DNA from: a virus
Taxonomy: Duplodnaviria; Heunggongvirae; Uroviricota; Caudoviricetes
IMG/VR virus record: IMGVR_UViG_2706794684_000018
Direction: 5' to 3' (one strand)
DNA length: 14,801 nucleotides
The position numbers and the translations under genes are program-made. Every line of letters begins with the position of its first letter. The stretch's first letter is position 1. Of this stretch, positions 4,167-14,801 are shown one piece after another. The notes below the pieces were generated by a model. The model searched no databases, was not told the DNA's origin, and saw only the letters and a program-made list of their open reading frames with translations.

Positions 4167-4267
4167 NNNNNNNNNNNNNNNNNNNNNNNNNNNNNNNNNN
4201 NNNNNNNNNNNNNNNNNNNNNNNNNNNNNNNNNNNNNNNNNNNNNNNNNNNNNNNNNNNNNNNNNNN
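4167..4267. other. Run of 101 N (assembly gap or masked sequence)
   Basis: Seen directly in the sequence. Hides the 3' end of ydaV and the 5' end of the downstream gene. Confidence 0.99.
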
Positions 4268-4967: not shown

Positions 4968-5786
4968 TTACCCCCTGAAGCCTGGCGGGATCGCACTATC
5001 CGGTAACGAGACGGTGTTAACCTGTCGGAGTAACGTCTCAGGTCGAACACCTTTCGGCGCGAACAAGCCCTGGTATTCATTGGCGATGCTGTGTCGAATC
5101 ACCTGCTCAGGTGAAAAACCCTGCTGGCGGAATTTTTCCAGCTCCCGTATCGCCCCGTTAGCGCCCTGCTCCGTTCGAATCGGTTTTCGCAATGCCTGGC
5201 GAAATTCAACCCACTCACGCCAAAGCGAGACAGAAATCCAGTTCGGCAAAGCAATATCCAGAGGGTCAAACTTTTTGACACCTCGATTCCCCCGGGGGGG
5301 ATTTAGGGGGGGATCTGTTTTTAGATCTTTATCTGTATCTTTATTAGTTGCCTTTGTGTTGACATCATGTTCAAACACCACTTCAACATCTGTTTGAACA
5401 CCTGTTAAATTTCTCTCTTGTTTTGTTTGAACATCTNNNNNNNNNNNNNNNNNNNNNNNNNNNNNNNNNNNNNNNNNNNNNNNNNNNNNNNNNNNNNNNN
5501 NNNNNNNNNNNNNNNNNNNNNNNNNNNNNNNNNNNNNNNNNNNNNNNNNNNNNNNNNNNNNNNNNNNNNNNNNNNNNNNNNNNNNNNNNNNNNNNNNNNN
5601 NNNNNNNNNNNNNNNNNNNNNNNNNNNNNNNNNNNNNNNNNNNNNNNNNNNNNNNNNNNNNNNNNNNNNNNNNNNNNNNNNNNNNNNNNTCAGCAACAAA
5701 TACGCACCATGCTCCTCTGCTGACAAATGCATGGTGTCAGCCAGGTAATCAGCTATGTACAGTTGCATGTATGGTAATGCGGCCAT
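4968..5786 (-). CDS. ydaU: DUF1376-family phage replication-region protein YdaU (interrupted by the N-run 5437..5689)
   Basis: N-terminus [32 protein letters not shown] is characteristic of DUF1376 and matches my recollection of YdaU. The preferred start ATG at 5786..5784 gives this N-terminus; the track's longer ORF to 5837 has no Shine-Dalgarno. The gene is immediately upstream of ydaV. Confidence 0.7.
5437..5689. other. Run of 253 N (assembly gap or masked sequence) inside ydaU
   Basis: Seen directly in the sequence. Confidence 0.99.
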
Positions 5787-7613: not shown

Positions 7614-8098
7614 CGATTAAAACGTCTACTCCTGCTGTTCCAGAATAACTTCATAAAATGGGAGTATTTTTCGGTGACGAGATAATAAGAACAGTTTGCG
7701 CTATCACTCTGATGTTGAATGATGCCCTTCCGTTCTAATTTTTTCATAACCGGGTTACGGCAAGGAGAAGTGATAATAAGATTTCCTGTTTTAAGGAAAT
7801 CTTTAAATACAGCGATTTCTTTCTCAGATAAACGAAGCAATACTCGTTGCTCTGGTAGTAATGAATAATGCTTTTGAATATGTGCTCGCAATCTTGAGAA
7901 GGAAATGGCGACCACGAAAGAAAAGGCAAAAACGATAATCTGAAAGAGCCAAGGTATTTCAGTATAAGCATTGAATGCGACAGTAAACTCTTTCGGTATC
8001 AGCCAGAGAGTGAGACCAAAAATGATAATCGTATACATAAGTATTTCGAGTGGCTCGTTAGCAAAAAGTTTCAACAATGGAGTAAATACATCCAACAT
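7610..8098 (-). CDS. sieB: Superinfection exclusion protein B (membrane protein)
   Basis: Track ORF is 203 aa; the internal ATG at 8098..8096 gives a 162-aa protein MLDVFTPLLKLFANEPLEILMYTIIIFGLTLWLIPKEF... with hydrophobic segments, matching my recollection of SieB. AT-rich gene. Confidence 0.85.
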   Translation of the reverse strand: MLDVFTPLLKLFANEPLEILMYTIIIFGLTLWLIPKEFTVAFNAYTEIPWLFQIIVFAFSFVVAISFSRLRAHIQKHYSLLPEQRVLLRLSEKEIAVFKDFLKTGNLIITSPCRNPVMKKLERKGIIQHQSDSANCSYYLVTEKYSHFMKLFWNSRSRRFNR

Positions 8099-8539
8099 AT
8101 CAATAACTCTCAACTGTAAGGGTATTGAAATGTTAACACAAGCTCTCGCTGTAGGGGTATAGCCGAGACCACCGAAGCCCGGAGGTGGTGAAATAAAACC
8201 GGGCACAACACGAAGGCGCATTTCCGATATCCATAAAGAGTCGGTCTTGTCTGTTAAATTTAAATGGTGGGAGTGCGCCTCCGGTTGTAAATAACGACAT
8301 TGCTGTGTGTAGTCCTGGCGGCATCAGTTTTTTTCTTGAAGTTCGGCTGATGTCCGCCCTTTTTAAAGTGAATTTTGTGATGCGGTGAATGCGGCTAAGC
8401 GCACGTGGCACAGTTAAAAGTCATGTTAGTCCTTATTGGTTTGGGTGGGAAAGCCGACTGTAATTGTTAACTGGTTGCAGTCACCTGGAGGCACCAGGCA
8501 CCGCATCAACAAAGTTCATTTGTAAAAATGGAGATAATT

Positions 8540-8761
8540 ATGATTGCACATCACTTCGGAACTGATGAAATACCACGTCAGTGTGTGACTCCTGGCGATT
8601 ATGTTCTTCATGAAGGCCGGACATATATTGCCTCGGCAAACAATATTAAAAAGCGAAAACTATATATTCGTAACCTGACCACAAAAACATGCATTACTGA
8701 CCGCATGATTAAAGTCTTCCTCGGTCGTGATGGTTTACCTGTAAAGGCGGAGTCATGGTGA
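8540..8761 (+). CDS. kilR: Killing protein KilR (FtsZ-directed cell-division inhibitor)
   Basis: ATG at 8540 preceded by GGAGA; 73-aa product [73 protein letters not shown] matches recalled KilR. The stop TGA (8759..8761) overlaps the ydaE ATG. Confidence 0.9.
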
Positions 8762-8931
8762 TGACTAAGAAAATAAAATGTGCTTACCACCTTTGCAAAA
8801 AAGACGTTGAAGAAAGCAAAGCTATTGAAAGAATGCTTCACTTCATGCACGGGATTTTATCAAAAGACGAACCGAGAAAATATTGCAGTGAAGCTTGTGC
8901 CGAAAAAGACCAGATGGCACATGAACTTTAA
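8761..8931 (+). CDS. ydaE: Small zinc-ribbon-like protein YdaE (56 aa)
   Basis: Hand-translated: [56 protein letters not shown], with four cysteines in two pairs. Start overlaps the kilR stop (TGATG junction). Not in the supplied track because it is shorter than 60 aa. Confidence 0.8.
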   Translation: MTKKIKCAYHLCKKDVEESKAIERMLHFMHGILSKDEPRKYCSEACAEKDQMAHEL

Positions 8932-9005
8932 TTAATTGACTATTCGAAACTGAATTTATGCCAGAAATGGCAGGTATTCGCTCAACCTTAATTAAGGAGA
9001 AAAAC

Positions 9006-9281
9006 ATGATTACCAATTATGAAGCCACTGTTGTAACTACCGATGACATTGTTCACGAGGTGAATCTGGAAGGAAAGCGCATTGGCTACGTAATTAAAAC
9101 AGAAAATAAAGAAACCCCATTCACTGTGGTTGATATCGATGGTCCATCAGGCAACGTAAAAACACTTGATGAAGGTGTCAAAAAAATGTGCCTGGTGCAT
9201 ATCGGAAAGAATCTGCCCGCAGAAAAAAAAGCCGAATTTCTGGCAACTCTAATTGCAATGAAATTAAAAGGTGAAATCTGA
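9006..9281 (+). CDS. racC: Rac prophage protein RacC (91 aa)
   Basis: ATG at 9006 preceded by AAGGAGAA (8994..9000). Product MITNYEATVVTTDDIVHEVNLEGKRIGYVIKTENKETPF... matches recalled RacC; the track's 107-aa ORF is an N-terminal over-extension. Confidence 0.85.
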   Translation: MITNYEATVVTTDDIVHEVNLEGKRIGYVIKTENKETPFTVVDIDGPSGNVKTLDEGVKKMCLVHIGKNLPAEKKAEFLATLIAMKLKGEI

Positions 9282-9286
9282 AAGAA

Positions 9287-9311
9287 ATAGCCTGCGTATG
9301 GCGCAGGCTAT
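9287..9311 (+). other. Perfect 10-bp stem-loop between racC and recE
   Basis: ATAGCCTGCG (9287..9296), loop TATGG, CGCAGGCTAT (9302..9311); begins 6 nt after the racC stop. No downstream T-tract, so it is not a canonical intrinsic terminator. Confidence 0.5.
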
Positions 9312-9382
9312 GAACAGTGTGTATCCGGCAAGATCATTCACTGAACAAAACGAATTTTAATCTGAGTTGAGGTTAAAAAACA

Positions 9383-12016
9383 ATGAGCACAAAACCACTC
9401 TTCCTGTTACGGAAAGCGAAAAAATCATCCGGTGAACCTGACGTCGTCCTGTGGGCAAGCAACGATTTTGAATCGACCTGTGCCACTCTGGACTACCTGA
9501 TCGTTAAGTCAGGTAAAAAACTGAGCAGCTATTTTAAAGCTGTTGCCACGAATTTTCCTGTCGTTAATGACCTGCCCGCTGAAGGTGAGATCGATTTTAC
9601 CTGGAGTGAACGCTATCAACTCAGCAAAGACTCCATGACATGGGAACTAAAACCGGGAGCAGCACCAGACAACGCTCACTATCAAGGCAATACCAACGTC
9701 AACGGCGAAGACATGACTGAGATTGAGGAGAATATGCTACTCCCAATTTCTGGCCAGGAACTGCCCATTCGTTGGCTTGCTCAACACGGCAGCGAAAAAC
9801 CGGTAACGCACGTTTCACGCGACGGACTCCAGGCATTACACATTGCTCGGGCTGAAGAACTACCGGCTGTTACTGCCCTGGCTGTTTCCCACAAAACCAG
9901 CCTGCTCGACCCGCTGGAAATTCGCGAACTCCACAAACTGGTTCGTGACACTGACAAAGTTTTCCCTAATCCTGGTAATTCAAACCTGGGACTGATAACT
10001 GCTTTTTTCGAAGCATACCTGAACGCTGACTACACCGATCGAGGACTGCTGACAAAAGAGTGGATGAAGGGTAATCGTGTTTCACACATCACTCGCACGG
10101 CTTCCGGTGCTAATGCTGGCGGCGGAAACCTCACCGATCGCGGCGAAGGTTTCGTACACGATCTGACGTCACTGGCGCGGGACGTAGCCACTGGCGTACT
10201 GGCCCGTTCAATGGATCTGGACATCTATAACCTTCATCCGGCACACGCTAAACGCATTGAGGAAATTATCGCTGAAAATAAACCGCCCTTTTCTGTTTTC
10301 CGCGACAAATTCATCACCATGCCTGGCGGGCTGGATTATTCCCGCGCCATCGTGGTTGCGTCCGTAAAAGAAGCACCAATTGGGATCGAGGTCATCCCCG
10401 CGCACGTCACTGAATATCTGAACAAAGTACTGACTGAAACCGATCATGCCAACCCTGATCCGGAAATCGTGGATATTGCCTGCGGTCGCTCCTCTGCCCC
10501 GATGCCGCAGCGAGTAACAGAAGAAGGAAAACAGGATGATGAAGAAAAACCGCAACCATCTGGAACAACGGCAGTTGAACAGGGAGAGGCTGAAACAATG
10601 GAACCGGACGCAACTGAACATCATCAGGACACGCAGCCGCTGGATGCTCAGTCACAGGTAAATTCTGTTGATGCGAAATATCAGGAACTGCGGGCAGAAC
10701 TCCATGAAGCCCGGAAAAACATTCCATCAAAAAATCCTGTCGATGCCGATAAATTGCTTGCTGCATCACGTGGTGAATTTGTTGACGGAATTAGCGACCC
10801 GAACGATCCGAAATGGGTAAAGGGGATCCAGACTCGCGATTGTGTGTACCAGAACCAGCCAGAAACGGAAAAAACCAGCCCGGATATGAATCAACCTGAG
10901 CCAGTAGTGCAACAGGAACCGGAAATAGCCTGCAATGCCTGCGGCCAGACTGGCGGGGATAACTGCCCTGACTGTGGTGCGGTGATGGGCGACGCAACAT
11001 ACCAGGAAACATTCGATGAAGAGAGTCAGGTTGAAGCTAAGGAAAATGATCCGGAGGAAATGGAAGGCGCTGAACATCCGCACAATGAGAATGCTGGCAG
11101 CGATCCGCATCGCGATTGCAGTGATGAAACTGGCGAAGTCGCAGATCCCGTAATCNNNNNNNNNNNNNNNNNNNNNNNNNNNNNNNNNNNNNNNNNNNNN
11201 NNNNNNNNNNNNNNNNNNNNNNNNNNNNNNNNNNNNNNNNNNNNNNNNNNNNNNNNNNNNNNNNNNNNNNNNNNNNNNNNNNNNNNNNNNNNNNNNNNNN
11301 NNNNNNNNNNNNNNNNNNNNNNNNNNNNNNNNNNNNNNNNNNNNNNNNNNNNNNNNNNNNNNNNNNNNNNNNNNNNNNNNNNNNNNNNNNNNNNNNNNNN
11401 NNNNNNNNNNNNNNNNNNNNNNNNNNNNNNCCGCCGGACAAACTCCGGAAAAGAAGAAGAGAAAGCGTTTCTGAGGGAATGCGCAAGCACAGGAAAAACG
11501 GTTATCACTGCCGAAGAAGGCCGGAAAATTGAACTCATGTATCAGAGCGTTATGGCTTTGCCGCTGGGGCAATGGCTTGTTGAAAGCGCCGGACACGCTG
11601 AATCATCAATTTACTGGGAAGATCCTGAAACAGCAATTTTGTGTCGGTGCCGTCCGGACAAAATTATCCCTGAATTTCACTGGATCATGGACGTGAAAAC
11701 TACGGCGGATATTCAACGATTCAAAACCGCTTATTACGACTACCGCTATCACGTTCAGGATGCATTCTACAGTGACGGTTATGAAGCACAGTTTGGAGTG
11801 CAGCCAACTTTCGTTTTTCTGGTTGCCAGCACAACTATTGAATGCGGACGTTATCCGGTTGAAATTTTCATGATGGGCGAAGAAGCAAAACTGGCAGGTC
11901 AGCTGGAATATCACCGCAATCTGCGAACCCTGGCTGACTGCCTCAATACCGATGAATGGCCAGCTATTAAGACGTTATCACTGCCCCGCTGGGCTAAGGA
12001 ATATGCAAATGACTAA
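9383..12016 (+). CDS. recE: Exodeoxyribonuclease VIII RecE (interrupted by the N-run 11156..11430)
   Basis: 878-codon frame including the masked stretch. N-terminal and C-terminal sequence (…RWAKEYAND) match my recollection of RecE. The 3' end overlaps the recT start. Confidence 0.9.
11156..11430. other. Run of 275 N (assembly gap or masked sequence) inside recE
   Basis: Seen directly. The recE reading frame is preserved across it, suggesting length-preserving masking rather than an arbitrary gap. Confidence 0.99.
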
Positions 12017-12818
12017 GCAACCACCAATCGCAAAAGCCGATCTGCAAAAAACTCAGGGAAACCGTGCACCAGCAGCAATTAAAAATAACGACGTGATTAG
12101 TTTTATTAACCAGCCATCAATGAAAGAGCAACTGGCAGCAGCTCTTCCACGCCATATGACGGCTGAACGTATGATCCGTATCGCCACCACAGAAATTCGT
12201 AAAGTTCCGGCGTTAGGAAACTGTGACACTATGAGTTTTGTCAGTGCAATCGTACAGTGTTCACAGCTCGGACTTGAGCCCGGTAGCGCCCTCGGTCATG
12301 CATATTTACTGCCTTTTGGTAATAAAAACGAAAAGAGCGGTAAAAAAAACGTTCAGCTAATCATTGGCTATCGCGGCATGATTGATCTGGCTCGCCGTTC
12401 AGGTCAAATCGCCAGCCTGTCAGCCCGTGTTGTCCGTGAAGGTGACGAGTTTAATTTCGAATTTGGCCTTGATGAAAAGTTAATACACCGCCCAGGAGAA
12501 AACGAAGATGCCCCTGTTACCCACGTCTATGCTGTCGCAAGACTGAAAGACGGAGGTACTCAGTTTGAAGTTATGACGCGCAAACAGATTGAGCTGGTGC
12601 GCAGCCAGAGTAAAGCTGGTAATAACGGGCCGTGGGTAACTCACTGGGAAGAAATGGCAAAGAAAACGGCTATTCGTCGCCTGTTCAAATATCTGCCCGT
12701 ATCAATTGAGATCCAGCGTGCAGTATCAATGGATGAAAAGGAACCACTGACAATCGATCCTGCAGATTCCTCTGTATTAACCGGGGAATACAGTGTAATC
12801 GATAATTCAGAGGAATAA
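12009..12818 (+). CDS. recT: Recombinase RecT (single-strand annealing protein, 269 aa)
   Basis: ATG at 12009; product [23 protein letters not shown]...VIDNSEE matches recalled RecT. The track's ORF start at 11952 is an upstream over-extension. Overlaps the recE stop by 8 nt. Confidence 0.95.
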
Positions 12819-12873
12819 TTCAGCCTGGCGGTGTAATGCACCGCCAACTTGAAATATTTTTATGAGAAAAATT

Positions 12874-13023
12874 ATGAGATATGACAATGTTAAACCATGT
12901 CCATTTTGTGGTTGTCCATCAGTAACGGTGAAAGCCATTTCAGGATATTACCGAGCGAAGTGTAACGGATGCGAATCCCGAACCGGTTATGGTGGAAGTG
13001 AAAAAGAAGCACTCGAACGATGA
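12874..13023 (+). CDS. ralR: Restriction alleviation protein RalR (Lar), truncated to 49 aa by an in-frame TGA
   Basis: Hand-translated from ATG 12874: MRYDNVKPCPFCGCPSVTVKAISGYYRAKCNGCESRTGYGGSEKEALER then TGA at 13021..13023. The same frame continues NKRTTGNNNGGVHV to TAA at 13066..13068, which would give exactly 64 aa, the length I recall for K-12 RalR, if the TGA were TGG. Below the track's 60-aa cutoff. Confidence 0.6.
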   Translation: MRYDNVKPCPFCGCPSVTVKAISGYYRAKCNGCESRTGYGGSEKEALER

Positions 13024-13060
13024 AATAAACGAACCACTGGAAATAATAATGGAGGTGTTC

Positions 13061-13249
13061 ATGTATAAAATTACCGCCACTATTGAAAAGGAAGGTGGCA
13101 CTCCTACTAACTGGACAAGATATTCAAAATCTAAACTAACGAAATCAGAATGCGAAAAAATGCTCTCAGGTAAAAAAGAAGCAGGCGTTTCCAGAGAGCA
13201 GAAAGTAAAACTGATAAATTTTAATTGCGAGAAACTTCAGTCCTCGTGA
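13061..13249 (+). CDS. ydaC: Rac prophage protein YdaC
   Basis: ATG at 13061 preceded by GGAGG (13051..13055, 5-nt spacer); product MYKITATIEKEGGTPTNWTRYSKSKLTKSECEKMLSGKKEAGVSREQKVKLINFNCEKLQSS. An alternative in-frame ATG at 13049 has a weaker ribosome-binding site. Confidence 0.75.
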   Translation: MYKITATIEKEGGTPTNWTRYSKSKLTKSECEKMLSGKKEAGVSREQKVKLINFNCEKLQSS

Positions 13250-13348
13250 ATTGCATTGTATTCAAATTAAAACTTCATAGCTGATTATTAATAATCAACA
13301 TCGGGCGTCAATTTAAGTCTAACATTGGCGCCTGCCAGAGGTGATGCG

Positions 13349-13564
13349 ATGGCACAAGTAATCTTTAATGAAGAGTGGATGGTTGAATACGGCCTGATGC
13401 TTCGCACTGGTCTGGGGGCCAGACAAATTGAAGCATACCGCCAGAACTGTTGGGTGGAAGGCTTCCACTTCAAACGAGTATCTCCTTTAGGGAAGCCAGA
13501 CAGTAAGCGAGGGATTATCTGGTATAACTATCCAAAGATAAATCAGTTTATCAAAGACTCATGA
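13349..13564 (+). CDS. xisR: Prophage excisionase XisR (YdaQ)
   Basis: ATG at 13349 preceded by GAGGTGAT; 71-aa product [71 protein letters not shown]. Immediately upstream of the integrase; its stop is 1 nt before the intR ATG. Confidence 0.8.
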
Positions 13565-13565
13565 T

Positions 13566-14801
13566 ATGTCTAAATTACCAACAGGTGTCGAGATTCGAGG
13601 TAAATACATTCGCATCTGGTTCATGTTTCGAGGAAAACGATGTCGGGAAACATTGAAAGGCTGGGAGGTTACTAACAGTAACATTAAAAAAGCCGGGAAT
13701 TTAAGAGCGTTGATAGTTCATGAAATCAATTCCGGTGAGTTTGAGTATTTAAGACGTTTTCCCCAGTCCAGCACTGGGGCAAAAATGGTGACAACGAGGG
13801 TCATAAAAACGTTCGGGGAGCTTTGTGATATCTGGACAAAAATTAAAGAAACAGAGTTAACAACAAACACAATGAAGAAAACGAAATCACAATTAAAAAC
13901 ACTCAGGATAATAATTTGTGAGAGTACTCCGATATCGCATATTCGTTATAGCGATATCTTAAACTACCGGAATGAACTGCTGCATGGAGAAACGCTTTAC
14001 CTGGATAATCCAAGATCCAACAAAAAAGGAAGAACCGTGCGCACAGTTGATAACTATATCGCCCTGCTCTGTTCGTTGTTACGTTTTGCGTATCAGTCGG
14101 GATTTATATCAACCAAACCATTTGAAGGAGTAAAGAAATTACAGAGAAACAGAATAAAGCCTGACCCGTTATCTAAAACAGAATTCAATGCATTAATGGA
14201 AAGTGAAAAAGGACAGAGCCAGAACTTGTGGAAATTTGCCGTATACTCCGGGCTTCGTCACGGGGAACTGGCTGCTCTGGCGTGGGAGGATGTGGATTTC
14301 GAGAAGGGAGTTGTGAATGTCAGAAGAAACCTGACGATACTGGATATGTTCGGTCCCCCAAAAACAAATGCGGGGATCCGGACGGTAACACTACTGCAGC
14401 CTGCTCTTGAAGCACTGAAGGAGCAATACAAACTGACCGGGCATCATCGCAAAAGCGAAATCACTTTTTATCATCGGGAGTACGGCAGAACCGAAAAGCA
14501 AAAACTGCATTTTGTTTTCATGCCCAGAGTGTGTAACGGAAAACAGAAACCTTATTACTCGGTAAGCAGTTTGGGTGCGAGATGGAATGCAGCAGTAAAA
14601 CGTGCTGGTATTCGCCGCCGTAATCCGTACCATACGCGGCATACTTTTGCCTGCTGGCTGTTGACGGCAGGAGCGAACCCGGCGTTTATAGCCAGCCAGA
14701 TGGGGCATGAAACTGCGCAGATGGTGTATGAAATTTACGGTATGTGGATTGATGACATGAACGACGAACAGGTAGCCATGTTGAATGCGCGGTTATCGTA
14801 G
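13566..14801 (+). CDS. intR: Rac prophage tyrosine integrase IntR (411 aa)
   Basis: Full 411-codon ORF ending in TAG at the last base of the window. C-terminal catalytic region contains RHGELAALAWEDVD... and HTRHTFACWLLTAGANPAFIASQMGHET... with a terminal Y in YEIYGMW, consistent with a tyrosine recombinase. Confidence 0.9.
   Translation: MSKLPTGVEIRGKYIRIWFMFRGKRCRETLKGWEVTNSNIKKAGNLRALIVHEINSGEFEYLRRFPQSSTGAKMVTTRVIKTFGELCDIWTKIKETELTTNTMKKTKSQLKTLRIIICESTPISHIRYSDILNYRNELLHGETLYLDNPRSNKKGRTVRTVDNYIALLCSLLRFAYQSGFISTKPFEGVKKLQRNRIKPDPLSKTEFNALMESEKGQSQNLWKFAVYSGLRHGELAALAWEDVDFEKGVVNVRRNLTILDMFGPPKTNAGIRTVTLLQPALEALKEQYKLTGHHRKSEITFYHREYGRTEKQKLHFVFMPRVCNGKQKPYYSVSSLGARWNAAVKRAGIRRRNPYHTRHTFACWLLTAGANPAFIASQMGHETAQMVYEIYGMWIDDMNDEQVAMLNARLS

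Follow-up and report, generated by a model that had tools for sequence, protein, structure and literature searches.

The Rac prophage of E. coli K-12 carries RalR/RalA, a type I toxin-antitoxin system whose toxin inhibits growth and cleaves DNA (Guo et al. 2014, PMC4041452). The toxin gene ralR was formerly named lar (King and Murray 1995, cited in PMC4041452). In K-12 MG1655 (b1348) it has 195 nt and encodes 64 aa, with TGG (Trp50) at codon 50. RalA pairs with the ralR mRNA through a repeat described in the same study (Guo et al. 2014, PMC4041452).

The whole 14,801-nucleotide stretch of viral DNA analyzed here, the window, represents the early-left arm of a Rac-like prophage. Its genes run in the order ydaV-ydaU-ydaT-ydaS/racR-ydaF-sieB-kilR-ydaE-racC-recE-recT-ralR-rcbA-xisR-intR, as annotated in a finished genome with 100% identity, and the order racC-recE-recT-ralR-rcbA-xisR-intR beside ttcA is present in the annotations of CM2010-0578/1, which is 100% identical, and of EDL933. 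The locus resembles K-12 RalR/RalA (PMC4041452) in its position between recT and xisR of a ttcA-integrated Rac-like prophage and in having rcbA downstream, and the first 49 residues of RalR, the full-length RalA and the 16-nt repeats are identical. It differs from K-12 in that residues 50-64, including W-N-K-R, are missing from the RalR product, the haplotype is about 2.3% diverged across recE'-intR, and rcbA encodes 62 aa versus 69 aa in K-12. RalA and the pairing repeats of the K-12 system are present and the full-length 64-aa toxin ORF is absent. The ralR genes of CP-933R (EDL933) and Sp10 (Sakai), with the product WP_001443846.1, are identical to the window in the DNA of 12418-14464 and in the 49-aa protein, but the rest of the prophage differs. 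The product shares the CPFCG...C..C zinc ribbon of the Lar family (PF14354) and scores above the gathering threshold, but unlike the family it lacks the invariant W-N-x-R at the end of the domain.

The ralR reading frame, RalA and rcbA

The features of the locus are as follows.
12874..13023, plus strand: truncated ralR (lar) ORF, 49 codons and TGA (PGAP ralR on the identical EDL933 sequence; Pfam PF14354)
12998..13015, plus strand: RalA target repeat inside ralR, GTGAAAAAGAAGCACTCG, intact, ending 5 nt before the stop (direct repeat D1, PMC4041452)
13016..13018, plus strand: Arg49 codon CGA (AGA in K-12), synonymous, marking the background of the stop (alignment, 61-mer counts)
13021..13023, plus strand: premature stop TGA replacing TGG (Trp50), following base A (alignment to K-12 and to the intact CGA-TGG alleles of ST2747, ETEC1717 and EL361)
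13024..13068, plus strand: former 3' end of ralR, 14 codons NKRTTGNNNGGVHV and TAA, untranslated barring UGA readthrough
13061..13249, plus strand: rcbA (ydaC), DUF1187 family, 62 aa (Pfam PF06688, 132 bits)
13067..13245, minus strand: RalA antitoxin sRNA gene, full length (Rfam RF02694, 225.1 bits versus a gathering score of 170, model positions 1-179 of 179)
13170..13187, plus strand: partner repeat inside rcbA, whose complement in RalA pairs with the ralR mRNA (direct repeat, PMC4041452)

Translation from the ATG at 12874 gives MRYDNVKPCPFCGCPSVTVKAISGYYRAKCNGCESRTGYGGSEKEALER, 49 codons ended by TGA at 13021-13023, and the frame then stays open for 14 further codons, NKRTTGNNNGGVHV, up to TAA at 13066-13068. 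Within ralR the window and K-12 differ at two bases only. Position 13018 is C in the window versus A in K-12, which changes AGA to CGA and leaves Arg49 unaltered; position 13023 is A versus G, which changes TGG to TGA and Trp50 to a stop. The first-pass annotation, made from the letters of the window, had read an in-frame TGA after 49 codons followed by NKRTTGNNNGGVHV and TAA, and translation of 12874-13068 agrees. The 64-aa K-12 RalR and the C-terminus that it gave are exact for b1348, the alignment to K-12 ralR confirms its single TGG-to-TGA nonsense change removing the last 15 residues, and the coordinates give the 37-nt gap that it had placed before the ydaC start at 13061. Upstream, recT is followed by an 8-bp GC-rich hairpin (12826-12846) and then by a T-run (12857-12861) directly upstream of the ralR start. 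The T-run is one T shorter than that of K-12, and the hairpin and T-run were uncalled by the terminator scan.

The RalA gene is antisense to rcbA and adjoins ralR. The window and K-12 match without a difference between 13024 and 13246, RalA is identical to that of K-12, and both repeats that form the 16-nt RalA-ralR complementarity are unchanged. An effect of the stop on RalA pairing was rejected because the changed base lies 5 nt past the repeat and the predicted RalA-mRNA duplex energies of the two alleles are at most 2 kcal/mol apart. The overall duplex energy, -73.5 kcal/mol, differs from that of shuffles by only about 2 sd, and therefore no extended pairing is claimed. The antitoxin RNA persists because RalA overlaps another gene.

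The former ralR 3' end (13024..13068) holds the rcbA ribosome-binding site and start codon. A canonical GGAGG Shine-Dalgarno sequence is located at 13051-13055, 5 nt upstream of the rcbA ATG, and no significant RNA structure sequestering the rcbA start was predicted (z = -0.71). The first-pass annotation had suggested that truncation could alter coupling to ydaC. Such dependence is not supported, since rcbA has its own GGAGG in a region without significant structure, and lost translational coupling to rcbA was rejected on these grounds. At its own 3' end, rcbA stops at TGA 13247-13249 after 62 aa in the window, EDL933 and four other sampled strains. K-12 MG1655 has AGA at this position and seven more codons (69 aa). 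The DUF1187 profile ends at residue 62, and therefore the rcbA of the K-12 laboratory reference appears to be a stop-loss variant.

Effect of the stop on RalR

The 49-aa RalR keeps the zinc ribbon cysteines (Cys9, Cys12, Cys30 and Cys33) and the first 7 residues of the C-terminal helix. It scores 39 bits against PF14354 (Lar_restr_allev) over profile positions 2-52 of 58, above the gathering cut-off of 28.6, and the restored 64-aa protein covers the whole profile with 53.5 bits. Truncation thus lowers the score by 14.5 bits and leaves the six positions at the end of the profile uncovered. What is missing is the C-terminal A-x-x-x-W-N-x-R motif, because Arg49 is the last residue of the product; the W-N-x-R codons other than that for Trp are still present past the stop but are untranslated. 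Conservation of the motif was measured in 193 aligned Lar-family domains taken from the best 150 of the 3,968 members that a profile search retrieved from 1.84 billion representative proteins. Trp was found at position 50 in 193/193 domains, Asn51 in 188/192 and Arg53 in 169/186, counts that are biased upward because the 150 members were picked by a profile containing the motif. In the zinc cysteine columns, aligned over 193-198 domains, Cys makes up at least 97%, and the three motif residues are comparably conserved. Salmonella and Citrobacter homologues retain W-N-K/R-R, and their tails beyond the motif are variable.

In an AlphaFold model of RalR, of moderate confidence (pLDDT 70), three strands are accompanied by a helix spanning residues 43-58. 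A stop at codon 50 therefore cuts the modeled helix after seven residues. Foldseek against the PDB returned no match at E <= 0.001 and no nuclease fold, the only resemblance being a weak one to an ELOF1-type zinc ribbon with a helix; a search of solved structures by sequence gave only chance matches to a chitin-binding protein. Translation of this natural, stably inherited nonsense allele ends after residue 49, with the zinc ribbon kept and with W-N-x-R and over half of the predicted C-terminal helix lost. Because the part removed includes a family-invariant motif and most of this helix, we infer that the toxin and restriction-alleviation activity is most likely lost or strongly reduced. Our literature search for work discussing or testing the 49-aa allele found none.

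The best-surviving alternative, though an unlikely one, is that the zinc ribbon alone suffices, in which case the shortening would be functionally neutral and the 49-aa protein would remain active as a toxin or in restriction alleviation. All four cysteines and all three predicted strands are kept, the intact zinc ribbon is probably the DNA-contacting part of RalR, and the protein passes the PF14354 cut-off (39 versus 28.6 bits) and has no PGAP pseudogene flag. The ORF is otherwise intact across hundreds of genomes. The allele is older than the O55:H7/O157:H7 split and shows no further ORF decay, and such long persistence means that it could be tolerated or even useful rather than dead. Against retained activity, Trp50, Asn51 and Arg53 match the zinc ligands in conservation across the family, and residues this invariant are seldom dispensable. 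In addition, toxicity is reported to be abolished by non-synonymous changes in the 16-nt repeat region, which lies immediately ahead of residue 50 (Guo et al. 2014, PMC4041452).

Several relatives of window 12874-13249 in the protein databases (P0012, P0015, P0005 and P0002) have further natural lesions in the same gene. They comprise two RalR-RcbA fusions, with the P0012 junction at the shared GAAGCA repeat, a 69-aa RalR with a frameshift and a variant in which Trp50 is Ser.

A second alternative is that the UGA is leaky and decoded by near-cognate Trp-tRNA, so that a small fraction of wild-type 64-aa RalR is made as a dose-attenuated toxin that rises under conditions favoring readthrough. 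No stop codon in E. coli is leakier than UGA, at which mainly Trp is inserted (PMC11126739, PMC10570021), so readthrough would restore the exact wild-type RalR. A Trp-to-TGA reporter is among the strongest readthrough sites and rates are higher in the cold and under nutrient stress (PMC11126739, PMC10570021). The frame is open downstream, and its 14 codons are identical to K-12. However, the rcbA ribosome-binding site and start codon lie in these 45 nt and account for their conservation, and no stimulatory structure was predicted downstream. The high readthrough values come largely from K-12, in which RF2 is inefficient (PMC11126739), and the carriers of the allele are non-K-12. The base after the stop is A, whereas G is singled out as lowering termination accuracy (PMC11126739). 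There is no sign of selection maintaining the arrangement. Readthrough is accordingly improbable as a selected function, given the constraint of the rcbA start on these codons, the lack of a stimulatory structure and the origin of the reported values in K-12 RF2. More doubtful still is the proposal that Trp50-to-UGA is a tuning device rather than a dead gene, with a few per cent or fewer of the ribosomes making wild-type RalR. If it were true, tuning would give a stress-graded, heterogeneous dose of DNase toxin that is higher in cold or starved O157:H7 and related strains. Selenocysteine recoding was rejected because no hairpin follows the UGA.

Distribution and origin of the allele

The stop is real. 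It is a common natural nonsense polymorphism, already catalogued, in a known prophage toxin gene. At least 40 complete E. coli genomes contain the 701 bp around it with 100% identity, among them those of O157:H7 EDL933 and Sakai, O55:H7 CB9615 and RM12579, and O111:H- 11128. An exact 61-mer centered on the stop was found in 310 of 5,426 complete E. coli genomes; a close match is present in 1,560 genomes, of which the 310 make up about 20%. Three phage genomes in the databases also carry the allele. RefSeq lists the exact 49-aa protein as WP_001443846.1, and it occurs on at least 1000 contigs; PGAP annotates the identical EDL933 sequence as ralR under this accession without a pseudogene flag. 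The first-pass annotation had allowed that reference alleles might also stop here and that its 64-aa length might be wrong; such alleles exist, and the 64-aa K-12 length is correct. Its other option, an error of sequencing or assembly in the IMG/VR record, can be dismissed: the window's assembly does contain runs of N, but the changed base is not in a homopolymeric region and the same base is present in 310 independently finished genomes from many laboratories and in the three phage records, with the 49-aa product in RefSeq.

The runs of N are at 4167-4267, 5437-5689 and 11156-11430, the last inside recE, and an otherwise identical finished genome is 94 bases longer over the same span. The Sakai record NC_002695.2 has recT, ydaC and ydaQ annotated in its match to window 12700-13400 and ralR absent; PGAP records name the 49-aa ORF RalR. 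PP818812.1 (Actinobacillus phage vB_Apl-pPE4) matches window 12826-13298 at 90.6%, which is unexpected for the stated host.

Alleles were distinguished by codons 49-50, with exact 61-mer matches counted in 5,426 genomes.
CGA-TGA (window): 49 aa, 310 matches
CGA-TGG: 64 aa, 123 matches
AGA-TGA: would be 49 aa, 0 matches
AGA-TGG (K-12): 64 aa, no separate count

All other sampled ralR alleles read TGG at codon 50, and therefore the stop is the derived state. The absence of AGA-TGA from the 5,426 genomes favors a single origin on the CGA background, and recurrent mutation was rejected because the stop occurs on the K-12 AGA background in 0 genomes. The pattern fits a stop that would have arisen once, on a Rac haplotype in which the synonymous CGA at Arg49 was already present.

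The segments of the prophage differ in their closest relative. The window is identical to EDL933 over 12418-14464 and has 99.7% identity to it across 11431-14801, a segment in which 78 positions differ from K-12 (97.7% identity, 2.3% divergence). Window 7769-11155 has 99.8% identity to K-12 and is nearer to K-12 than to EDL933, and the left part of the window has only 91-99% identity to EDL933. At least 80% of the whole window is matched by only 12 genomes. These differences, with so few whole-window matches, indicate that the allele rides on a recT-to-intR module common to otherwise mosaic prophages. It travels with recT-ralR-rcbA-xisR-intR in Rac-like prophages of many E. coli lineages, among them O55:H7, O157:H7, O111, and livestock and poultry strains.

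Implications for RalR/RalA outside K-12

The work on RalR/RalA in K-12 does not justify assuming that the pair functions as a toxin-antitoxin system in O157:H7, O55:H7, O111 and the other carriers. The stop is present in about one in five E. coli genomes that have a close ralR, and automatic annotation still calls the 49-aa product a toxin. The finding poses no challenge to current understanding. It offers an example of a single point mutation that probably disables a prophage toxin gene, with the antitoxin RNA persisting, and its main use is as a caution on moving K-12 results between strains and on trusting the automatic 'toxin' label.
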